A stretch of DNA of 38,859 nt from an uncultured Bacilli bacterium (GTDB lineage: Bacteria; Bacillota_I; Bacilli_A; RF39; UBA660): positions 1 through 38,859 of the forward strand of contig CAKOHL010000001.1 in assembly GCA_934085635.1 (NCBI GenBank), written 5' to 3'. This document shows, one piece after another, positions 1,943 to 12,413 of the stretch (the first letter of the stretch is position 1; each line of letters begins with the position of its first letter). A program made the translations under genes and the position numbers. The notes under the pieces were generated by a model. That model searched no databases. It was not told the DNA's origin and saw only the letters and a list, made by a program, of their open reading frames with translations.

Positions 1943-4086
1943 TATCTCTCCACCCTACTTATAAATTTCATATTGGATAAATCATTCATAAACTTATCTA
2001 AAAACTCTTTATTCTTTACTTTACATACAAGTTCATATATCTCTTCATTCTTACTTCTACCTTTATTATTAATAGATGAAACAATAACATCACTCTTAGT
2101 AGCTAAAGAAATTATATCTACTAAATTATCATTAGAAGAATCTATATACACTTTTATACTAACAGTATACCTTTCTACTCCCATATCATTCCAAGCAACA
2201 TCAATTATTCTTTCAGTATCATTTTCTATCTCTTTACAATCTTTTCTATGTACACTTATACCATTACCTTTAGTAATATATCCTACTATTTCATCTCCAT
2301 AAACTGGTTTACAACAATTAGCTAAATTAGTAAGAATATCATTATATCCCGCTATTAGAATATTACCACTATTATTATTAGTATGTACATTCTTATTTTC
2401 AAGAAGTTTTTCAATAGTATCATCTTTCTTAGGATAAACTATTTCAATAAGTTTATTTACTACAGCTTGAGGAGTATATTTTAAAGAAACTATACCTAAA
2501 CAAATATCATTCATATCATCTGCTTTCAACTCAGTACATAATTTCTCTATATTAGCATTAGTAAGTAATTCATTTACACTATACTTTCTCTTCTTAATCT
2601 CTTCTTTAATTATCTCATTACCAGTAAGTATACTCTTTTCTTTCTCTTTCTTATAGAAATAACTCTTAATTCTAGACTTAGCACTTTCAGTCTTTACAAA
2701 CTTAAGCCAAGTTTTAGAAGGACTCTTCCCAGCTTGTGTTCTAAGTTCAACTATATCTCCATCTTGAAGTAAATAATCTAAACTAACTTGTTTACCATTT
2801 ACTAAAGTACCTATTAAAGTATTACCAACCTCTGAATGTATCTTATAAGCAAAATCGACTGGAGTAGACTTATCAGGAAGTTCTATAATATCTCCTTTAG
2901 GAGTAAATATATATATAAATTCTTTACTAATATTATTTTGAAAATTCTTAAAGAAATCAGTATTTCCTTCTATATCATTTACTTCAATCAAAGTCCTAAA
3001 CTGAGCAAGTTTAGTTTCAAGTTCATTAGTTTTACTTCCATCAATATGTTCCTTATAAGACCAGTGAGAAGCAACCCCGTGCTCTGCTATTTCATTCATC
3101 TCATAAGTACGTATCTGTACTTCATATACTTTACCATCAACTCCAAATACTGTAGTATGTAAACTTTGATACATATTATTTTTAGGATTAGCTATAAAAT
3201 CTTTAAATCTCTTTGGTATAGGTCTAAACTTAGAATGAATAAGTCCAACTACCAAATAACACTCTTCAGTTTTTTCAAGAAGTACTCTAAGTCCAAGTAA
3301 ATCATATATTTGATCCCACTTTCTACCAGAAGCAAGTTTATTATAAATACCCCTAACAGACTTAACTCTATAAGTAAGTTCATACTTAATCTCGTGTTCA
3401 TTAAGTATTTCCATTATTTCATCTCTCATCTTATATAAAGAATTCTCAAGTTCCTCTTTACTAGCATTAATCTTCTCTAATATTTCTTTATACTCTACTG
3501 GATGAGTAAGTCTTAAACAAATATCCTCAAGTTCACTCTTCATACTTTTAATACCAAGCCTATGCGCTATAGGTATAAAAATATTTTCTGTCTCAGAAAC
3601 AACCTCTTTAATATGTTCTTCATCTAAAGGATCTATAGTTCTTAAATTATCAAGTCTATCAGCAAGTTTAATAAATAATGTTATAGGATTCTCAGAAAGA
3701 CCTACTACTATTCTTCTATACTTATCTTTATCATTATCTTTATTAAAAGTCCTCTTAAGTCTACTTATTTTAGTAATAGAAGAAAGAATACTAAACACTT
3801 CTTCTCCAAACTCTTTTTTAACTTCTTCCTCAGTCATCTTTTCTAAGGTAAGCGCTTCGTGAATTAAACCGCACCCAATTGTAAGAGCATCCATCTTAAG
3901 TTCAGCAAGAATTATACTAACTCTCAAAGGATGACAAATATACTCTTCCCCTGATAATCTATTCATTCCATCATATATAATAATAGCTTTCTCATAATAT
4001 TTATTTACTATATTTATTCTATCTTCATCCATATATGACTTCAAAATAGTAATTAATTTTTCATAATCTTTTTCCTTAGTTTCCAT
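1942..4086 (-). CDS. relA: Bifunctional (p)ppGpp synthetase/hydrolase (RelA/SpoT family)
   Basis: 714 aa. HD hydrolase region (YICHPLRVSIILAEL, LIHEAL), synthetase region (YRVKSVRGIYNKL, DLLGLRVL, YQSLHTTV), TGS region (IYIFTPKGDIIELPDKSTPVDFAYKIHSEVGN) and an ACT-like C-terminus. Confidence 0.95.
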   Translation of the reverse strand: METKEKDYEKLITILKSYMDEDRINIVNKYYEKAIIIYDGMNRLSGEEYICHPLRVSIILAELKMDALTIGCGLIHEALTLEKMTEEEVKKEFGEEVFSILSSITKISRLKRTFNKDNDKDKYRRIVVGLSENPITLFIKLADRLDNLRTIDPLDEEHIKEVVSETENIFIPIAHRLGIKSMKSELEDICLRLTHPVEYKEILEKINASKEELENSLYKMRDEIMEILNEHEIKYELTYRVKSVRGIYNKLASGRKWDQIYDLLGLRVLLEKTEECYLVVGLIHSKFRPIPKRFKDFIANPKNNMYQSLHTTVFGVDGKVYEVQIRTYEMNEIAEHGVASHWSYKEHIDGSKTNELETKLAQFRTLIEVNDIEGNTDFFKNFQNNISKEFIYIFTPKGDIIELPDKSTPVDFAYKIHSEVGNTLIGTLVNGKQVSLDYLLQDGDIVELRTQAGKSPSKTWLKFVKTESAKSRIKSYFYKKEKEKSILTGNEIIKEEIKKRKYSVNELLTNANIEKLCTELKADDMNDICLGIVSLKYTPQAVVNKLIEIVYPKKDDTIEKLLENKNVHTNNNSGNILIAGYNDILTNLANCCKPVYGDEIVGYITKGNGISVHRKDCKEIENDTERIIDVAWNDMGVERYTVSIKVYIDSSNDNLVDIISLATKSDVIVSSINNKGRSKNEEIYELVCKVKNKEFLDKFMNDLSNMKFISRVER

Positions 4087-6284
4087 TATGCATTTATTCC
4101 TTTTATTAACCTTTCTTGTGGCTCATCATCTAAAACATCTTTCTTAATTTTAGGATGCTTAAACTTATGTACTTCAAGTCTATATAAAATATAAGGTGCT
4201 ATATATAAACTACTAAATGTACCAAAAGTAAGTCCAAATAATATTGTTAAATTAAATTCTCTAACTCCATTAGTATTCATAAGAAGTAAAACTATAACTG
4301 CTATTAAAGTTGTTAAACTAGCAAGTAAATTTCTCTTTAAAGTTAAACTAGTACTAGTATTAATAACATCTCTAATCTTATCTTCATTAATATTTTTAAT
4401 ACTCTTCATCTTATCTCTTATCATATCAAACACTATTATAGTATTATTTATTGAATAACCAATTATAGTAAGAATACCTGCTATAAATATAAAGTTAATC
4501 TCTATCTTAAATATTGCAAACAATGATATAGTTACTAAAACATCACTAAGAATCGCGCAAATACCACTAATACTATAATTACCAGCAAACCTAAATGCTA
4601 TATAAATAAGAATTGCAAGTCCAGCAAATAATAGTGACTTAATTGCATTAACAGTTAAATCTCTTTTAACTAAATTACTTATACTTGATATATCAGCATC
4701 TAACTTTAATTCTTCAAAATTCTTCTTAACTATTTTAATTTCATCACTACCTAGTGATTCACTTATTTTAATATAATACTCTTTATCAGATACCTTAGAT
4801 TCTTCTGTAATAGTATATTTATCTAATTTCTCATAAATCTTATCTTTATCTATAGTCTCACCACTTTTAACAGTAATTGCACTTCCTCCTTTAAAGTCTA
4901 CTCCAAAATTAAGCCCAGAAGTAAATGTTACTATAATTCCGACTATTATTATAATAGATACAATAGCTATATTATATTTAGAATATTTTAAATTATCTCT
5001 AACCTTAGCCTTCTTACATTTACCTAAAAGTATCTTTTCATTATTATCAAACTTATCTGTACTTATAAAATTAGAAAGTAAAAATCTATTAATTAATACC
5101 ATACTAATGCCAGTAACTATAATAGTTAAAATAAGCATAGTAGCAAAACCTTTAACACTAGATTCTCCAAGTATAAATAATACTAAAGCAGCTATAAAAG
5201 TAGTCAAATTGGCATCAATTAAGGACACTAAACTACGTTTATTACCATCTAAATAAGCATTCTTTAAGCTCTTACCATTACTTACTTCTTCTTTAATTTT
5301 CTCAATTGTAATAATACTTGAGTCAACAGCCATACCAATACCTAAGATAAGGGCTGCAATACCAGTTAATGTAAGTACTCCATCTATCAAAGTATAAAAC
5401 ATAAATACAAGTCCAACATATAAAACTAAACTTACAAAGCTTACTACTCCTGATAATCTATAATTAACAATCATAATAACAGAAATAATAAGTAAAGTAA
5501 TAAGTCCAGCTTTAGCTATTAAATTTAGAGTATTACTTCCATATGAAGCATCAACGCTTTTAGTACTTATCTCAGTTAACTTAGCTCTTAAACTACCAGA
5601 ATTAATTAAATCAACCAAAGTATTTGCTTCTTCTTCAGTAAAATTACCTTGAATAACTACATTACTTGAAAACCCTTCTTTAACAGTAGCAGCACTTATA
5701 CATTTAGTACTACTTTCCCCACATTTAGCTGTTTTATAAGAGTCTCCCTCTTCAAAATCAAGCCATATTGTAATAAGTTTATCATCACTTTCACTTATAC
5801 TTTTAGTAACTCTATAAAAAGTATCTTTATCTTTAATAGAAAGAGCAACAACTGGTTTACCAGTTTGCCTATCATAATCCAAACTAGCCCCAGGAGATGC
5901 AAGTACACTTGATGACATAACTTCCTCATCAGAAGTATTTCTAAAAGTTAAAACTGCTGGAGTAGTAAGTCTTTCTCTAGCTTCATCTTCATTTTGTACA
6001 CCAGGAAGTTTAACCCTAATTTTGTCTCCCTCAATAATAATTTCAGGTTCACTTACACCAAGTGTATCTATCCTATTTCTTATAGATTTATAAGTAGCTT
6101 TAATATCCGAATCCTTAAGTTCACTTCCATCTAAACTCTCAACTAAATAAAGAACTTCAAATCCACCCTTTAAATCTAATCCATAATTAATTTTCTTAAC
6201 AAATGTAAGTATCAAAAGTACTCCAATAATAAAAGCACTCAAAAGATACAAAATACTCTTAGTCAATGTTGTCTTTTTTTTCAT
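4086..6284 (-). CDS. secDF: Protein translocase subunit SecDF (fused)
   Basis: 732 aa multi-TM protein with the duplicated signatures GLDLKGGFEVLY (SecD) and GVDFKGGSAITV (SecF). Size and fusion match Bacillus SecDF. Confidence 0.9.
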   Translation of the reverse strand: MKKKTTLTKSILYLLSAFIIGVLLILTFVKKINYGLDLKGGFEVLYLVESLDGSELKDSDIKATYKSIRNRIDTLGVSEPEIIIEGDKIRVKLPGVQNEDEARERLTTPAVLTFRNTSDEEVMSSSVLASPGASLDYDRQTGKPVVALSIKDKDTFYRVTKSISESDDKLITIWLDFEEGDSYKTAKCGESSTKCISAATVKEGFSSNVVIQGNFTEEEANTLVDLINSGSLRAKLTEISTKSVDASYGSNTLNLIAKAGLITLLIISVIMIVNYRLSGVVSFVSLVLYVGLVFMFYTLIDGVLTLTGIAALILGIGMAVDSSIITIEKIKEEVSNGKSLKNAYLDGNKRSLVSLIDANLTTFIAALVLFILGESSVKGFATMLILTIIVTGISMVLINRFLLSNFISTDKFDNNEKILLGKCKKAKVRDNLKYSKYNIAIVSIIIIVGIIVTFTSGLNFGVDFKGGSAITVKSGETIDKDKIYEKLDKYTITEESKVSDKEYYIKISESLGSDEIKIVKKNFEELKLDADISSISNLVKRDLTVNAIKSLLFAGLAILIYIAFRFAGNYSISGICAILSDVLVTISLFAIFKIEINFIFIAGILTIIGYSINNTIIVFDMIRDKMKSIKNINEDKIRDVINTSTSLTLKRNLLASLTTLIAVIVLLLMNTNGVREFNLTILFGLTFGTFSSLYIAPYILYRLEVHKFKHPKIKKDVLDDEPQERLIKGINA

Positions 6285-6571: not shown

Positions 6572-6613
6572 TTTAACCACCAACCAAATTAAGTATACTA
6601 CATTTTACACAAT

Positions 6614-6643
6614 TTGAAAAGAAGACTTTTTCCTAAAGTCCTC
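6614..6643 (-). terminator. Rho-independent terminator closing the comEC-downstream cargo region
   Basis: Minus strand GAGGACTTT-AGGAA-AAAGTCTTC (one G.U pair) followed by TTTTC. Lies between the DUF1016 fragment and comN. Confidence 0.5.
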
Positions 6644-6842
6644 TTTAATCTATGTAAACGCCCTAACTAGACGTATACCTTATTATATGTAAAGTATGAA
6701 TATATATGACTTTTATTATCTCCATTTATATTTAATGTATTTTTTAAATTAATTATTAATATTTTAATTGTATCACTAATGCTTATACTTACTCTTTTAC
6801 CATCGTAATTCTGATGGTGTAATTTTTCTTTTTTTCCAAGCA

Positions 6843-6982
6843 CCTATATATTGCCATATTTTCCTCCAGCTTCAGTCAATAATCTACCTATTTCAAAATA
6901 TGTAATACCCTTATACCTTTCCTTTGAATAATCTTTTACTTTTGTATATGTTTCATTATCTATTAATTTATTCTTTTGTCAT
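6843..6982 (-). pseudogene. Frameshifted 5' fragment of a second DUF1016/YhcG nuclease gene
   Basis: About 130 nt here aligns with the 5' end of the intact gene (roughly 6846-6975 vs 7746-7875; tttcaaaatatgtaata..cctttgaataatcttttacttttgtatat is nearly identical). ATG 6982-6980 reads M-T-K-E-stop. The shifted frame gives KNKLIDNETYTKVKDYSKERYKGITYFEIGRLLTEAGGKYGNI-stop, matching residues 9-50 of the full protein. Confidence 0.8.
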
Positions 6983-7002
6983 ATAATCACATCCTATAGA
7001 TA

Positions 7003-7896
7003 CTATATCACAATAACATATTCTCTTATAGCAATTCTTTCATCTGAACAATATTCTATAACAAATTTATTTTCCCGTTTACAAATTAATATTCCCATTG
7101 TATTATTATTAAATTGTTCTTTTACATTCTTGTCTATATAATTCATATATTTTTGAACTTGTGATATGTATTCTACTTTAAACACAGTTACCTTTAATTC
7201 AACAACTACATAACAGTTATATTTTATATTAAATAACAACAAATCAACATAATGATTTCTATCACCTATCTTAAGCTTGTATTCATTACCTATAAAACTA
7301 AATGAATTACCAAGTTCTTTCATAAATGATTCAATATCTTCTAAAATTAAATTATGTAATGCTTTTTCAGTGGCTATTTCTATATTGTTCTTATTCCTAA
7401 TTAATATAGGATTAGGTACTAAATCTTTTATTTCAATCTCATTATTAAGTATTAGCTGATTTCTAGTTTCACTTGGTAATCTTTCATATTCTTTATTTTT
7501 AATTTTTTCTCTTAATTCTCTTTTTGATAAATTCCTTTTAAAAGCAATGTTTACATAATATAACAATTCATTTTCATCTTTAATAGATAATAATTCAGAA
7601 TAATGACTCCAAGATAATTTGGTCGCCAGTGGCGACCATTTTTCATCTTTGAACATTCTATAATATTGTCTAATACGTCTTAATGTTCTTTCATTATATT
7701 TTTTTCCAAACTCAACAACCAATCTATTTGAATAATTTTTTAAGATATTATCTCCATATTTACTACCTGCTTCATCTAATAGTTTTCCAATTTCAAAATA
7801 TGTAATAACTTTGTATCTTTCCTTTGAATAATCTTTTACTTTTGTATATATTTCATTATCAATCAATTTGTTTTTTATCTCGCTATAATAATTCAT
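7003..7896 (-). CDS. DUF1016 / YhcG-family PDDEXK nuclease
   Basis: 297 aa. N-terminal YhcG signature (YFEIGKLL..., RRIRQYYRMF, LSWSHYSELLSIKD, NLSKRELREKI). C-terminal PD-(D/E)xK-like core (HYVDLLLFNIKYNCYVVVELKV). RBS GGAAGGAAG 13 nt after the stop of the comEC pseudo-copy. Confidence 0.85.
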   Translation of the reverse strand: MNYYSEIKNKLIDNEIYTKVKDYSKERYKVITYFEIGKLLDEAGSKYGDNILKNYSNRLVVEFGKKYNERTLRRIRQYYRMFKDEKWSPLATKLSWSHYSELLSIKDENELLYYVNIAFKRNLSKRELREKIKNKEYERLPSETRNQLILNNEIEIKDLVPNPILIRNKNNIEIATEKALHNLILEDIESFMKELGNSFSFIGNEYKLKIGDRNHYVDLLLFNIKYNCYVVVELKVTVFKVEYISQVQKYMNYIDKNVKEQFNNNTMGILICKRENKFVIEYCSDERIAIREYVIVI

Positions 7897-7909: not shown

Positions 7910-8479
7910 CTACGGACTGCAAGTTACTTTTTTTAACTTATTATTTTTAATCTTAAACATAACACTCCCATCTTCATCTGTTCTATATATTTTTGTGTTT
8001 ACTAAATTATTTAATACTGACTCTTTAGGATGACCATATCTGTTATTCTTACCAACACTAATAATCGCGTATTTAGGCTCTGTTTTATTTATAAAATATT
8101 TACTACTACTTGTTTTAGATCCATGATGTCCAACTTTTAATACATCAATATCTGATAGATTATACTTTTCTAAAATATCTTTTTCTTTATCTACCCCAGC
8201 GTCTCCCATAAACATAAATTTATATCCATTAAGTTCAGTATAAATAACATTACTATTATCGTTTTCGTTATCATATTCTTTTGTTTGTAAAAAATATAAT
8301 TTGTTATCATCTATATTTAACTCTTTAATACATGAATAATATTTTGTATTATTTTTATCTAATACCTTAATTAATTCCTTTTCTAAATCATTGAACTCGC
8401 CACAATTAAAAATAACTTTTTCTACTTTAAAGTTATTAACCAAATTTATTGCTTCGCCCATATGATCATAATCCCCGTG
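7910..8479 (-). pseudogene. Displaced 3' fragment of comEC (metallo-beta-lactamase domain only)
   Basis: The 183-aa ORF aligns along its whole length with the C-terminal ~185 aa of the intact ComEC (FMGDAG, LKVGHHGS, ISVGKNNRYGHPKESVLNNLVNTKIYRTDEDGS). Homology stops at ccccgtg (8473-8479), and an in-frame TGA lies 3 codons upstream of the HGDYDH codons. The ~525 N-terminal residues are absent. Confidence 0.85.
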
Positions 8480-8514
8480 TGGTGATTTTCAATTAGTAAG
8501 TCGAATTTAAGTAA

Positions 8515-8539
8515 AGAAAAAAGATTACATAATGTAACC
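8515..8539 (-). terminator. Rho-independent terminator after the 571-aa gene
   Basis: Minus strand, immediately after the TAA stop: GGTTACATTATGTAATC hairpin followed by TTTTTTC. Confidence 0.55.
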
Positions 8540-10255
8540 TTAATCTAATGTCTGGTAAGCTTTTTTAATATCAGCATTTGCCATTTCTATTTGTCTTTTT
8601 TTATCTAAAAACATATTTATTATCTCTTCAGGTTTTTCCACCGTATATCCTTGTTTTCTAGCATAATCAACCCAATATGGAGATTTCAATACTTTTTCAA
8701 ATTCACTATCTAAAGTTTTTGTTACTATATCTATACAATATATTGCAGTTTTTGGAGCATCAACTGATATTTCATCAATATGGTTCATAATTCTACCTAA
8801 ATACGAAATCAATTTATCACTATTGAAATGTTTTTCAAGTAATTCAGGTGCAACATCTCTATAACCATTATTTATTGTATAAATTGATTCTAAAATACTT
8901 TTTAATATTTTAGAATCATCATATCTACTTTCAAATAATTCTAAATTTTTTTCGATTTTTTCTATATTATTTAATAAACACTTTTGACAATCTACTACTA
9001 CAATAGGAATATTAAAATCTTTTGCTGCTTTTAAACTTTCAAGCCAAATTGGATCACTACTAAAATCTTCCTTTGTTTTTAAGTATACTATATAATCTGG
9101 ATTAATCCTTTCTAACTTACCATTTATTACTCTTCTTCTAGAACGATAAACTTCATTATTCGTAAATCTTGTGTTATTTATTAAACTATCAGGTGTTCTA
9201 AATTCAACGTCAGCAATTAATTTTTTTTGATGAAATGGATTTGTAACATTCAAATCTTTATATATTCCACCAGTACCTAGATCATTTGCGCCTAATAATG
9301 ATAAATTGTTTCTACCAAAATTATTAAAGCCAAACAAACAGTGCTTTACATGTGTTTTTATGCTACTGCTGTTAATAATTGAATTACACATATAATCAGT
9401 AGCAATACTTGGACAATTCCATGCGTCTTTAAAATTTTCAGGTGTTTCGTATTCTGTTGCCATACCATACGAATAAATACACATATTAAAATCTAATCCA
9501 GCATCATATATATTAATACCATCAACGTTACCAATTTGTTTTTCATTTGTTGGTGAATAAAACTTTTCATCATATATTTTTGAGTAAAAATTTCTAAGAA
9601 CAGAATCTATATTAATTAGAAAACTTAAATTCTCATATGCAATTCTATCGCTACCTTTACCTTCAATAATATTTTTAATATCAAGTAAAAAATCTTTTTC
9701 CTCTGATTCAGGTAAATTTTCTATATCCTTACCATATCTCATATATAAATTATAAGCTTTATCATATGACATTCCATATTTGTTTAATAATAATATATTT
9801 GGATCATTTGTTTCGTTATTTTTACTATTCTTGTCATCTCTAATTATTTGTAAATTATTTAGATCATCAACAGAATTTATACCGAAATAATTAGCTCCAT
9901 TACTAATTACAAATAATAATTTTTCTATTTGAGACTCGCTCAATTCATTTTTACTAACATCATCTATTAAATTTGAAAAATGTTTATTTTTTAAAAAATG
10001 ATAATAATTTGCACATAATGAAATCCAATCTTGATTTACACTTTCAGCATAACTAATAATCTTTGATATATTTTTAATGTTATGTTCAGATAGGTTAATT
10101 ATATTTTCTTGTGCTTCTTTATTTAAAGCAAATGTTTCTAAAACATATAAAGGTAAATATTTTATGGTAATTTCATTTATAAAACCACTTATTAGTGTTT
10201 TTTCTATTTCTTTATTGCTGGTTTTTAAATAATTTATTATACTATTAACATCCAT
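8540..10255 (-). CDS. Hypothetical 571-aa cytoplasmic protein, no family recognised
   Basis: Long uninterrupted ORF with ATG start and RBS-like TATAGGATGTGAT 3 nt upstream. No signal peptide or TM segment. The N- and C-terminal thirds look helical. The Cys/His/Gly-rich centre (FNMCIYSYG, HVKHCLFGFNNFGRNNLSLLGANDLGTGG, NEVYRSRRR, PIVVVDCQKC) matches no motif I know. Confidence 0.6.
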   Translation of the reverse strand: MDVNSIINYLKTSNKEIEKTLISGFINEITIKYLPLYVLETFALNKEAQENIINLSEHNIKNISKIISYAESVNQDWISLCANYYHFLKNKHFSNLIDDVSKNELSESQIEKLLFVISNGANYFGINSVDDLNNLQIIRDDKNSKNNETNDPNILLLNKYGMSYDKAYNLYMRYGKDIENLPESEEKDFLLDIKNIIEGKGSDRIAYENLSFLINIDSVLRNFYSKIYDEKFYSPTNEKQIGNVDGINIYDAGLDFNMCIYSYGMATEYETPENFKDAWNCPSIATDYMCNSIINSSSIKTHVKHCLFGFNNFGRNNLSLLGANDLGTGGIYKDLNVTNPFHQKKLIADVEFRTPDSLINNTRFTNNEVYRSRRRVINGKLERINPDYIVYLKTKEDFSSDPIWLESLKAAKDFNIPIVVVDCQKCLLNNIEKIEKNLELFESRYDDSKILKSILESIYTINNGYRDVAPELLEKHFNSDKLISYLGRIMNHIDEISVDAPKTAIYCIDIVTKTLDSEFEKVLKSPYWVDYARKQGYTVEKPEEIINMFLDKKRQIEMANADIKKAYQTLD

Positions 10256-10280
10256 TCTATCACATCCTATAATTATTATA

Positions 10281-12413
10281 TCATATTAATTTATAATTAG
10301 GTAAACAAGTTCCTATTTTTAATTCATTATTTTTAATTTTAAACATAATGCTACCATCTTCATCAGTTCTATATATTTTTGTGTTTACTAAATTATTTAA
10401 TACTGATTCTTTAGGATGACCATATCTGTTATTCTTTCCAACACTAATAATAGAATATTTAGGATTGATACTTTTAATAAATTCTTCACTACTACTTGTA
10501 TTCGAACCGTGATGACCTACTTTTAAAACATCTATATTTTTCAAATTATATTTTTCTAATATATCTTTTTCTTTATTAATACCTGCATCACCCATAAATA
10601 AAAATTTATAATTATTATAATTTAAATAAATTACACTAGAGTTATCATTTTCATTATCAAATAAATCTGTATTCAAAAAAATTAATTTAGCTTCATCGAA
10701 ATGAGCCTCACTTATGCATTTATAATAATTAATCTTATTCGCTTCTAGTACTTTAATTAGTTCCTTTTCAAGATTATTATAGTCCCCACAGTTAAAAACA
10801 ACATTGCTAACGCGAAAATTATTAACTAAATTTATTGCTTCGCCCATATGATCATAATCCCCGTGAGTAATAATTAAATAATCAAGTTTACTAATTCCGA
10901 GTTTTCTCATAAAAGGTATAGTACTTGATCTAACAATTGAACTAGTTTTACCTTTCGCCCATTCTTCTTTTTTATAAGTAGTCTTGCCTCCAGTATCAAT
11001 AAGTATATTCGTTTTGGTATAACGACTTGTAAGCAAAATAGAATCTCCCTGCCCGACATCTAAATAATAAATATCAGTTGAAGTCTTAAAAAGAGGCTTA
11101 ATCTTAACTAAGACAAGAAGAAGCATTAAAACTAAAAGCAATACTTTCTTTCTAACTTTAACAAAAATAGCAAATGTCATTACAAAGATAACTACAAACC
11201 AGATGCTAACTTTAGGGAAATAAATAATTATCTTAAATTTATTAAAAAATGTACTAAGTATTTCTAGTATATCGGTAAAAAAATACAAAACTTTAGAAGC
11301 AAATGGAAAAACAAAAGTAAACAAAGTAAATGGAAAAATAATAAAACTTACAAATGGGACGAACACTAAATTAAGAACTGTACCTAATAAATTAATGTAT
11401 CCAAAATAATAAATGCTTACACTCATAGTCCCAATAAAACTAACTAGACTTACTTTAAATAATCCTTTCAAATAACCTTTGTCACTAATTAAGTCTGATG
11501 AAATCATTAGAAAAAAAGCAGCAAGAAACGATAAAATAAAGCTAATCTTATAAATTATAAATGGATTAATTATAACTAAAGTACTGAAAACTAAATAAAG
11601 TACATTAACTTGTTTAACATTAAAATAAAACACTTTATTAATTCCAAGTAGGAAGAAAAGTAAAGAGGCTCTTAAAATAGATGGAGAAAAATTAGTAATA
11701 AATGAAAACATCATTAAAAAAATAAACACAAATATGTAACTCATAAACTCGCTTATCTTAAACCTCTTTAGTACAAATAAAATAAGTGCACTAAAAATAC
11801 TAACGTGAAGCCCTGACAAAGCAAATAAATGACTAATTCCATTTTCTCTATAAGAAGTAATTACTTCTTCATCTATATAAGTTGTCTTACCTAATATAAA
11901 AGCATAAATATAACTCTTATCTTGGAATCTCTCTGCTCTTTTGTATAGATAATTCTTGAGATTATAAAAAATATTAATATTCTTATTATTAAGTCTAATA
12001 CTATCTACTTTTAATAAATAATATATTTTTTCATTATATAAATATTTCTTATAATTAAACATATATGGTAAAGTATTATTCTTAGCCTCTTCTAAAGTTC
12101 CGCTCACTTCTACTTTAGAACCAATAAGTAAATTTGATTCAAAGTATTTTTTCTCATCTAAAGATTTAATATAGTATGTAGCTTTTAACTTTTCTTTACA
12201 TTTCAAAATTAAATCAAGTTTGTCTCCACTTATTTTATACTCTTTTAGAATACATTTAAAACTAGTATCATCTTGATCATATTTACTCTCATACTTTTTA
12301 ATTTTAGTCACACATAAACTAAACAAAAGCGCTAAAATAACTAGAAACCTATAAAGATAATCACACAGTAATATTTTCCTTAATACTATCATAAAGTTTA
12401 TCCCCAATACCAC
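10281..12413 (-). CDS. comEC: DNA internalization competence protein ComEC/Rec2
   Basis: 710 aa. Multi-TM competence domain (GISHLFALSGLHVSI) plus a C-terminal MBL domain (YLDVGQGDSILL, ITHGDYDHMGEA, FMGDAG, KVGHHGS). Follows comEA. The true start is probably ATG at 12392 (track start 12413 is GTG inside comEA). Confidence 0.9.
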   Translation of the reverse strand: MVLGINFMIVLRKILLCDYLYRFLVILALLFSLCVTKIKKYESKYDQDDTSFKCILKEYKISGDKLDLILKCKEKLKATYYIKSLDEKKYFESNLLIGSKVEVSGTLEEAKNNTLPYMFNYKKYLYNEKIYYLLKVDSIRLNNKNINIFYNLKNYLYKRAERFQDKSYIYAFILGKTTYIDEEVITSYRENGISHLFALSGLHVSIFSALILFVLKRFKISEFMSYIFVFIFLMMFSFITNFSPSILRASLLFFLLGINKVFYFNVKQVNVLYLVFSTLVIINPFIIYKISFILSFLAAFFLMISSDLISDKGYLKGLFKVSLVSFIGTMSVSIYYFGYINLLGTVLNLVFVPFVSFIIFPFTLFTFVFPFASKVLYFFTDILEILSTFFNKFKIIIYFPKVSIWFVVIFVMTFAIFVKVRKKVLLLVLMLLLVLVKIKPLFKTSTDIYYLDVGQGDSILLTSRYTKTNILIDTGGKTTYKKEEWAKGKTSSIVRSSTIPFMRKLGISKLDYLIITHGDYDHMGEAINLVNNFRVSNVVFNCGDYNNLEKELIKVLEANKINYYKCISEAHFDEAKLIFLNTDLFDNENDNSSVIYLNYNNYKFLFMGDAGINKEKDILEKYNLKNIDVLKVGHHGSNTSSSEEFIKSINPKYSIISVGKNNRYGHPKESVLNNLVNTKIYRTDEDGSIMFKIKNNELKIGTCLPNYKLI

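Follow-up and report, generated by a model that had tools for sequence, protein, structure and literature searches.

Several described systems offer comparisons for the locus analysed here, a stretch of 38,859 nucleotides from an uncultured Bacilli bacterium (contig CAKOHL010000001.1; hereafter, the window), in which an open reading frame (ORF) for an uncharacterised 571-aa protein, denoted X, lies next to the competence gene comEC. One close parallel is the tandem accretion of cis-mobilizable and integrative mobilizable elements (CIME and IME) at the fda gene of Streptococcus thermophilus (ICESt1/CIME; PMC5704250). There, as in the comEC locus, integrase-less elements bounded by attachment (att) sites are stacked at one target gene, insertion keeps the gene intact and pushes its older 3' end downstream, and the recombinase acts in trans, or would do so in the comEC arrays. 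However, the CIME depend on tyrosine recombinases, duplicate tens of bp and carry several kb of a decayed integrative conjugative element, whereas the comEC arrays have the att arms of phages with serine recombinases, duplicate 570 bp of coding sequence, consist of units of one or two genes with a conserved promoter, and have an intact gene (B-B') rather than attL as the left junction. A second parallel is provided by prophages in competence genes (Listeria comK; pneumococcal comYC and ssbB; PMC7397523, PMC12637031), where a phage recombinase targets a conserved motif inside the gene; a prophage junction of this kind in comEC is present in one viral contig (L101). These prophages split and inactivate the gene, whereas the array loci retain an intact comEC, followed by nothing more than short cassettes without an integrase and displaced 3' ends.

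Integron arrays resemble the comEC arrays in having a fixed platform beside one site, at which many single ORFs (promoter-less or with a short leader) of diverse and mostly unknown function are lined up in one orientation, and in that the cassettes are bounded by a recombination site and vary in number at the strain level. Conversely, the comEC arrays have no IntI tyrosine recombinase, attI or attC hairpin; their repeat consists of a protein-coding gene end and a phage att arm, and their cassettes have their own extended -10 box and terminator. Finally, the mitochondrial atp6-ORF360 of Allomyces macrogynus is reportedly a mobile ORF for a GIY-YIG homing endonuclease that brings a replacement C-terminus, and its layout is said to be the same, i.e., the 5' part of the host gene, a foreign in-frame 3' part, a nuclease gene and the displaced native 3' part. 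The difference is that the boundary in the comEC arrays is a serine-integrase crossover core, and that DUF1016, the predicted nuclease gene of the arrays, is dispensable for the unit structure. In the literature searched, there is no paper linking DUF1016 or cassette arrays to comEC or reporting comEC cassette hotspots, nor a description of a mobile comEC 3' end combined with an integrase-less array of serine-att cassettes.

We consider it likely that X is a horizontally moving passenger in tandem comEC cassette arrays located at a phage serine-integrase attachment site. The ORF, until now an orphan, can be placed as a passenger of an integrase-less cassette array that is widespread among uncultured gut Bacilli. 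The preliminary description of this locus proposed a specific link between X and DNA uptake; the comparisons below point instead to X sitting beside comEC because comEC contains the attachment site of a phage integrase.

The comEC gene end and the phage attachment site

Identities were calculated separately for the two parts of the gene in 23 full-length comEC copies, which represent 21 lineages with <60% identity in the 5' part. The median pairwise identity was 37.5% for aa 130-505 and 78.2% for aa 517-705, with a correlation of 0.08 between the 5' and 3' values. For example, the comEC genes of loci L031 and L063 are 29.5% identical in the 5' part and 94.1% identical in the 3' part, and the window gene shares 28-42% aa identity with the 22 others in the 5' part compared to 54-75% in the 3' part. 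The per-position identity rises in a sharp step between aa 504 and 517 and is flat afterwards, non-motif positions included; within one metallo-beta-lactamase (MBL) domain, aa 481-500 are at 17-24% and aa 531-570 at 72-77%. Because of the sharp step at codon 517 and the uncorrelated halves, the last ~190 comEC codons are part of a shared mobile pool that is joined to host genes at one point. The last 190 codons of an essential competence gene thus behave as mobile DNA among lineages that are otherwise ~38% identical.

The junction was compared to sites in viral contigs. In contig L100, the phage attachment site (attP) is an imperfect palindrome with a short core, ATTCGACTTACT TTTTGACAATC ACCACAT GGAGGT ATGTGGT T AGTAAGTCGAAT, that abuts the stop codon of a recombinase gene; its left half is the leader V1, which precedes comEC fragments in the arrays. 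The recombinase of L100 and L101 (473 aa) has the catalytic, Recombinase and zinc-ribbon domains of a large serine recombinase (PF00239 Resolvase, 1e-32; PF07508 Recombinase, 1.6e-6; PF13408 Zn_ribbon_recom, 2.5e-7) and is encoded on phage contigs. The hybrid site attL is found in L101, which begins with TTA ATA ATA ACT CAT GGA G, the comEC B arm coding L-I-I-T-H-G, so that the order is B arm TTAATAATAACT, CATGGAG and P' arm, followed by the same recombinase and an Xre-type repressor. The opposite hybrid, an attR-type junction in which the P arm (leader) is joined through CAYGG to the comEC 3' segment (comEC'), occurs in the window and at more than 70 distinct repeat starts. The core is common to the attP of L100, the attL of L101 and the array junctions, and the native comEC sites aligned across 23 hosts provide the bacterial counterpart (attB). 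Taken together, these alignments show that comEC in this group of uncultured gut Bacilli contains the predicted attB of temperate phages using a large serine recombinase, with the core CAYGG at His517-Gly518.

Four more phage contigs encode recombinases that are 65-73% identical and have a palindromic attP with the core CCACATGG and arms resembling the second common leader, V2; in two of the four, as in the arrays, the P arm immediately follows a terminator. V2 itself was not found in the viral contigs. At least three P-arm variants, matching different phage attP sites, are present in the arrays. In locus L042, single-gene cassettes (an esterase; an Xre-type helix-turn-helix membrane protein) are flanked by V1-core-P', V3-core-P' and V3-core-comEC', i.e., half-sites are shuffled around one fixed core. 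The same stretch of L042 (5591-7460, inside the comEC array) includes a complete attP-like palindrome and the third left-arm variant, TTTTCGACACTTAAAAATTGG; each of its cassettes has its own TGnTATAAT box, and the next comEC' fragment has a G9 homopolymer. The IMG/VR contigs L100/L103 and L104-L107 form a recombinase family of 65-100% identity with palindromic attP sites sharing the core CCACATGG; presumably, all of these recombinases target the comEC HGDYDH codons, and the attP/attB pairs are candidate orthogonal integrase tools.

Array architecture and the X unit

All long comEC fragments begin with a 29-nt non-coding leader that directly follows the terminator of the preceding gene. The two common variants of this leader, V1 (AAATTCGACTTACT(TTTT/AATT)GACAATCACCA) and V2 (AAATCCGTATGCATAAACGTATGTCACCA), have exactly equal length. 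Short fragments (aa ~650-705; 655-class repeats) derive from the long ones by internal deletion. When V1 was used as the query, independently of X, at least 80 metagenome loci were obtained, nearly all with the order comEA, full comEC, DUF1016, 0.35-1.4 kb, leader, comEC aa 517-705 and again DUF1016 and further genes; DUF1016 starts 13-45 nt after the comEC stop, and several tandem copies are frequent. The same architecture was seen in independent loci found through X. The unit is, therefore, composed of a comEC 3' segment (aa 517-705), usually DUF1016, one cargo gene, a terminator and the 29-nt P arm. At the first comEC', the reading frame continues from the 5' part of the host gene, so that comEC is intact, and all later junctions are of the attR type. 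These repeats were also considered as orphan C-terminal arrays of the polymorphic-toxin kind, which was rejected, since the repeats are homologous copies of comEC' and not a set of alternative domains.

The cargo is highly diverse: across 93 cassettes, the ORFs whose ends immediately precede a leader form at least 50 unrelated clusters. Pfam domains were found in about one third of 45 cargo families, and include ADP-ribosylglycohydrolase, 2'-5' RNA ligase, HAD_SAK_2 (HAD RNA-repair), HD, GNAT, nucleotidyltransferase, Acyl_transf_3, peptidase S41 and an insertion sequence transposase; further cargo genes encode a NUDIX domain fused to Bro-N/RhuM (PADLOC PDC-S13) and a viperin-like radical SAM protein with a weak match to pVip models (1e-14). 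DUF1016 and RhuM are among the annotations most enriched beside restriction-modification and BREX genes targeted by programmed inversions (PMC9881135). The cargo pool looks like accessory, or moron, genes of phage-host conflict, the majority of which, X included, have no known function. The arrays can be read as an inventory of small genes, at least 50 in number and most of them uncharacterised, which move in the manner of phage morons; X is among them. In the leader-bearing loci listed, DUF1016 is present in 51 of 82 and X in 5 of 82: DUF1016 is the usual first gene of a unit, and X is a rare cargo.

The window contains two units, comEC'-X-terminator-leader (unit 1) and comEC'-DUF1016 (unit 2). 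Their features, all on the minus strand, are as follows.

10866..12413, minus: host-derived comEC 5' part (aa 1-516; DUF4131, Competence domain and first MBL motifs), with the B arm of the attachment site at its end (Pfam; B-arm alignment)
10861..10865, minus: attB-type core CACGG, the His517-Gly518 codons of the HGDYDH metallo-beta-lactamase motif (identity step at aa 504-517)
10281..10865, minus: mobile comEC 3' part (comEC', aa 517-710), in frame with the host part; starts unit 1 (identity comparisons)
10275..10295, minus: DUF1016 relic (last ~21 nt), including the extended -10 TATGATATAAT at 10275-10285 (comparison with intact DUF1016 ends)
10259..10268, minus: ribosome-binding site (RBS) of X, AGGATGTGAT (read from the sequence)
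8540..10255, minus: X, 571-aa ORF, cargo protein
about 8512..8541, minus: intrinsic terminator of X (9-bp stem, UUA loop, U-run; -7.6 kcal/mol, z = -2.45)
about 8480..8508, minus: leader V1, AAATTCGACTTACTAATTGAAAATCACCA, 29 nt, a phage attP P arm (single copy in the window, none expected by chance)
7910..8479, minus: displaced comEC 3' fragment (aa 517-705), first element of unit 2 (second copy of the comEC 3' end)
7003..7896, minus: DUF1016/YhcG PD-(D/E)xK nuclease gene, starting 13 nt after the stop of the comEC fragment (Pfam; PADLOC PDC-S02)
6849..7002, minus: cargo slot of unit 2, with the DUF1016 stop, a degenerate promoter/RBS junction and a dead 5' fragment of a second DUF1016 (repeats; tblastn; sequence read)

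The comEC' of unit 1 (10281-10865) is 88% identical at the nt level to that of locus L011, beginning precisely at the core boundary, and its last 160 nt are 94% identical to locus L010. The leader and the following CACGG (8475-8508) form the attR-type junction that closes unit 1. The displaced fragment of unit 2 duplicates 10281-10865 at 75% aa and about 79-85% nt identity, and the duplication starts abruptly at the HGDYDH codons; it is 94% nt-identical to the L010 fragment down to about 7966. From Met523, the fragment is open as a 183-aa ORF (7910-8461), which was considered as a ComEC/Rec2 gene and rejected, since it is without the DUF4131, Competence and MBL architecture and matches only the C-terminal 130 positions of TIGR00361 (82.8 bits compared to a cut-off of 190). 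The ORF at 7003-7896 belongs to the DUF1016/YhcG family, with matches to PF17761 (DUF1016_N, 6.9e-26) and PF06250 (YhcG_C, 2e-34), and the leader-comEC'-DUF1016 block of the window recurs with 71-82% nt identity in dozens of loci. The dead second DUF1016 fragment covers aa 8-49 up to a premature stop and is followed by a hairpin and the native comN-secDF genes, which place the limit of the inserted DNA at about 6600-6850. These native genes encode a ComN-type post-transcriptional regulator (PF13797, 6281-6583), which overlaps the start of secDF (4086-6284). The AT-rich DUF1016 gene also contains a perfect GC-rich palindrome with an 8-bp stem, TGGTCGCCACTGGCGACCA (7620-7638), which the terminator scan flagged on both strands and which is absent from all 107 other loci.

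The origin of the X unit can be traced through the ends of DUF1016 genes, which read ...GAATTAGTG TGA|TATAAT in 45 of 66 units. The resulting TRTGnTATAAT over the DUF1016 stop matches the Gram-positive extended -10 perfectly, and after it come an RBS and the ATG of the cargo gene. L008 has the DUF1016-X arrangement intact, with this extended -10. Between comEC' and X, all that is left of DUF1016 in the window, L010, L011 and L077 is its final ~21 nt; the relic reads TATAAATTAATATGATATAAT in the window, whereas the end of an intact DUF1016 reads TATGAATTAGTGTGATATAAT. The window comEC (10281-10298) has lost its TAA by a 1-nt deletion, as seen against the copy in L010, and because of this runs five extra codons (N-Y-K-L-I) into the relic, ending in K-L-I-stop where DUF1016 ended in E-L-V-stop. 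This comparison shows the X unit of the window as a canonical unit minus its DUF1016, and the -10 box over the comEC stop as a predicted, conserved cargo promoter inherited from the deleted gene. X would be transcribed from its own promoter and, additionally, by read-through from comEC.

The comEC ORF (10281-12413) ends with TGA at 10281-10283, overlapped by the TGATATAAT box, and the ATG of X is at 10253-10255; the 25-nt gap has no stable structure compared to shuffled sequences (folding z = 0.31). The RBS motif AGGATGTGAT is also found ahead of many different cargo genes. The terminator of X, a hairpin followed by UUUUUUCUUU as read from the window sequence, is retained in the X units of L002, L008, L010, L011 and L047; it was unflagged by the consensus terminator scan, for which the hairpin is too AT-rich.

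The 571-aa ORF at 8540-10255, the 25-nt gap without a hairpin (z = 0.31), the terminator (about 8512-8541; -7.6 kcal/mol, z = -2.45) and the -10-like box over the comEC stop were all reported correctly in the preliminary description; the box TGATATAAT is real, being the relic of the last codons of the deleted DUF1016. The idea of X as cargo is likewise borne out, by the cassette architecture and by the horizontal transfer discussed below. The proposed co-expression with comEA-comEC holds in part: there is no terminator and read-through is possible, whereas a dependence of X on that transcript is unsupported, X having a conserved extended -10 of its own. The distance of ~0.6 kb to DUF1016 was right, but the second comEC 3' copy (7910-8479) and the phage att arm that precedes it had been missed. 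The locus is indeed unusual, though for a different reason, namely the mobile comEC 3' end and the att-bounded array.

Movement of the units and alternative explanations

X is found in at least five different genomic contexts. In L001-L003 and L012 (X 73% identity), it lies within a series of small genes between comEC and rpsO; in L008 (85%), DUF1016 is directly upstream; in L010 (98%) and L011 (90%), comEC fragments are on both sides; in L004/L014 (49%), the order is comEA-comEC-X-holA and no repeats are visible. Relatives that are still more remote (690-715 aa) were found either in the interval from infC-rplT to serS or in an integrase/RepA_N/Mob element of the integrative mobilizable type. 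The X block of the window (7964-10443) is 94% nt-identical to that of L010, whereas the comEC 5' parts of the two are only 32% identical; because nearly identical blocks occur in such different hosts, the X block together with both flanking comEC pieces is seen to have moved horizontally. Among the loci fetched, there were no same-species loci sharing the comEC 5' part of the window. L001 and L002, which are assemblies of one species, differ by three cassettes. Between L001 142-2208 and L002 2847-4913, one assembly has a split comEC (282 + 392 aa) and three extra cassettes, which points to strain-level comEC inactivation and cassette turnover.

We suggest that a serine integrase, which helper phages would provide in trans, acts at the common core to insert, remove and spread the units, and that homologous recombination between the 570-bp comEC' repeats very probably adds gain, loss and exchange among related strains. 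It should be noted that serine integrases reportedly recombine only attP with attB, or attL with attR in the presence of a recombination directionality factor (PMC3783163). A canonical route would include the following three steps: (i) a phage integrates at the intact attB of the array; (ii) the phage excises through a distal attR, picking up units; (iii) in a new host, excision through a proximal attR leaves the units behind.

Several observations weigh against this interpretation of X and the arrays. Under the attP x attB rule, inserting a P-B' circle into B-B' in a single step would be a non-canonical reaction. The arrays pose a mechanistic puzzle for the directionality rules of serine integrases. 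The canonical helper-phage route predicts phage genomes with comEC' units, and neither comEC' nor attR-type junctions were found in viral contigs in two IMG/VR scans. No recombinase gene is present in the window or in any array locus. X was not found in INPHARED phages, PLSDB plasmids or IMG/VR viral contigs, and the PADLOC 2.0 defence models have no match to it at E<=0.1. The mechanism does not account for the presence of so many cargo genes between the end of DUF1016 and the terminator/P arm. Finally, in L005 (6739-9761) and L009 (6719-9719), X (37% and 46% identity in the two lineages) starts 1-8 nt after a GH25 muramidase gene, in a block kept in both lineages (miaB-like, 285-aa ORF, GH25, X, glmM, M23 peptidase, CYTH, ileS); this conserved position near glmM could mean a cellular role. 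The block may represent a cellular operon or what is left of a prophage lysis module, and may point to a cell-envelope or prophage-lysis-module origin of X.

A bolder extension of the passenger interpretation, which we put forward only tentatively, is that the arrays are a previously undescribed, integron-like gene-capture platform run by phage large serine integrases. Single-gene cassettes bounded by att half-sites, each with a conserved extended -10, would be inserted, shuffled and exported at the comEC HGDYDH codons, with each event swapping in a functional comEC 3' end; competence would be kept intact while phage-conflict genes accumulate, and X would be a founding member of a new-fold enzyme family.

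Among the alternatives, the one that survives best, although we consider it unlikely, does without present-day site-specific machinery: a single ancient phage scar and a duplication, followed by RecA-dependent recombination between comEC'/DUF1016 repeats after natural transformation. The repeats of 570-1,460 bp at 70-94% identity would be suitable substrates, the hosts retain comEA, an intact comEC and a pilin-like gene, L001 and L002 show strain-level indels of units, and the short 655-class repeats are deletion derivatives. However, the host 5' parts are ~38% identical and offer no left-hand homology, yet the junction is at codon 517 in 21 of 21 lineages; because of this lack of homology, homologous recombination cannot explain the fixed junction. 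Nor is there an identity gradient after codon 517, and both the three or more P-arm variants matching different phage attP sites and the half-site shuffling in L042 argue for site-specific events. Once the leader proved to be a phage attP arm, both this explanation and the next were downgraded.

The latter, which we regard as very improbable, treats the units as homing-type elements, where the DUF1016 PD-(D/E)xK nuclease cuts a naive comEC at HGDYDH and repair copies in the replacement 3' end together with the nuclease gene. It would account for DUF1016 being the only gene conserved in units, a predicted nuclease that starts 13-45 nt after nearly every comEC' stop, and for a layout matching the reported Allomyces atp6 precedent. 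However, the leader is a phage attP arm rather than a target scar, an attL with the same core exists, cassettes without DUF1016 are present in L042 and in the X units, and the intact hybrid comEC retains the putative target, such that a resident nuclease would cut its own genome.

Equally improbable is the idea that X is a competence accessory factor, co-transcribed with comEA-comEC and acting on incoming DNA alone or with DUF1016. The 25 nt without a terminator between comEC and X would be consistent with it, as would the position of X downstream of comEC in the window, L008, L010-L012 and the repeat-free L004/L014 (comEA-comEC-X-holA). On the other hand, the adjacency is accounted for by the att site, at least 50 genes unrelated to one another fill the same slot, 77 of the 82 leader-bearing loci listed are without X, X has its own conserved promoter, and its 37-46% identical homologues adjoin GH25/glmM, with remoter ones in an IME or between infC and serS. 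The neighbourhoods of X, a survey of which was suggested in the preliminary description, do not support an exclusive linkage to comEC. The functional module of X and DUF1016 that was proposed there is unsupported: the two genes are in different units, and a terminator, the attR-type junction and the displaced comEC copy lie between them; DUF1016 occurs in 51 and X in 5 of the 82 listed loci; and the X unit itself arose by deletion of DUF1016. A role of X in DNA uptake or a partnership with DUF1016 is, accordingly, unlikely. The least probable alternative, a cellular housekeeping or cell-envelope gene of the clade that is in the array by chance, would explain the conserved synteny in two lineages (miaB-like, 285 aa, GH25, X starting 1-8 nt after GH25, glmM, M23) but has against it the matches in only 5 of 185,579 species-representative genomes in a pattern-limited scan, the five or more contexts of X, the 94% nt-identical X block in hosts with 32%-identical comEC 5' parts, and the distant relative inside an integrase/Mob element.

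The X protein and its relatives

X has no transmembrane or signal-like segment (maximum Kyte-Doolittle value 1.22), as stated in the preliminary description. The central region had also been called rich in Cys, His and Gly; this was overstated, with C 3.1%, H 1.6% and G 5.8% in the central domain, and C 1.4%, H 1.4% and G 3.7% overall. The placement of X outside known families was upheld by all checks, i.e., Pfam, NCBIfam, PHROGs and PADLOC (zero family matches at E<=0.1), PDB profiles, and AlphaFold with Foldseek. We detected 86 homologues, of which ~74 are full-length at 36-98% identity, and none of the 86 has a Pfam domain or an informative name.

The AlphaFold2 model of X, calculated from an alignment of 38 sequences, is a confident one, with a predicted local distance difference test (pLDDT) of 92.9 and a predicted template-modelling score (pTM) of 0.91. 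Two helical arms, one N-terminal (1-231) and one C-terminal (423-570), flank a central alpha/beta domain (240-422). Foldseek found no neighbour for the full model in PDB and BFVD (best E 0.4, template-modelling score <= 0.17) or for the central domain alone in PDB (best E 0.85), and sequence-profile searches of PDB with close and diverse alignments returned no relative. X is, on the basis of this model, an uncharacterised family with a predicted fold lacking any known match. Two candidate assignments for the central region were tried and rejected. A PD-(D/E)xK fold was suggested by TnsA/BamHI only at E = 2-4 and probability <=0.06, which we judged to be noise, and of the candidate residues, D387 is shared by only 53% and K393 by only 28% of the superfamily. 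A four-Cys zinc site is not a family feature, since C306, C423 and C426 are not conserved across the superfamily; the CxxC pair 423/426 is restricted to the X subfamily.

An exhaustive profile search (E<=1e-3) found the ~520-residue X module in 766 clusters. Like X, the proteins in question are uncharacterised (no member is named or studied, and no source names exist for them); unlike X, most are multidomain proteins of 600-2,200 aa, in which tandem helical repeats form N-terminal extensions to the module. A C-terminal HD phosphohydrolase domain is present in ~15% of the large relatives. The residues C290, S292, D325, T362, P386 and Y388 are conserved across the superfamily, E368 and D422 are conserved at ~77%, and no His is conserved.

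X is probably a cytoplasmic protein, and any biochemical role that we assign to it is a guess. It is possible, though doubtful, that it acts in conflicts between phages or other mobile genetic elements and their hosts, as a defence or counter-defence enzyme. This guess is based on the cytoplasmic character of the protein, its conserved pocket-type residues, and its place in a single-gene cassette with its own promoter; on the sharing of the cargo slot with nucleotide- and RNA-modifying and defence-candidate genes; and on its relatives, some of which are HD fusions while others have a small ORF downstream and reside on a mobilizable element. The alpha/beta core would carry the conserved Cys290, Ser292, Asp325 and Tyr388, the helical arms would hold a macromolecular substrate, partner or trigger against this core, and X would be comparable to the morons that temperate phages carry beside attR.

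The window X is without such a small ORF. Distant relatives of 705-714 aa have it: downstream of each lies a conserved ORF, ~96-97 aa long and unmatched in Pfam (L015 10182-10472; L017 10145-10438); the distant relative and the ~97-aa ORF could be a two-gene system.

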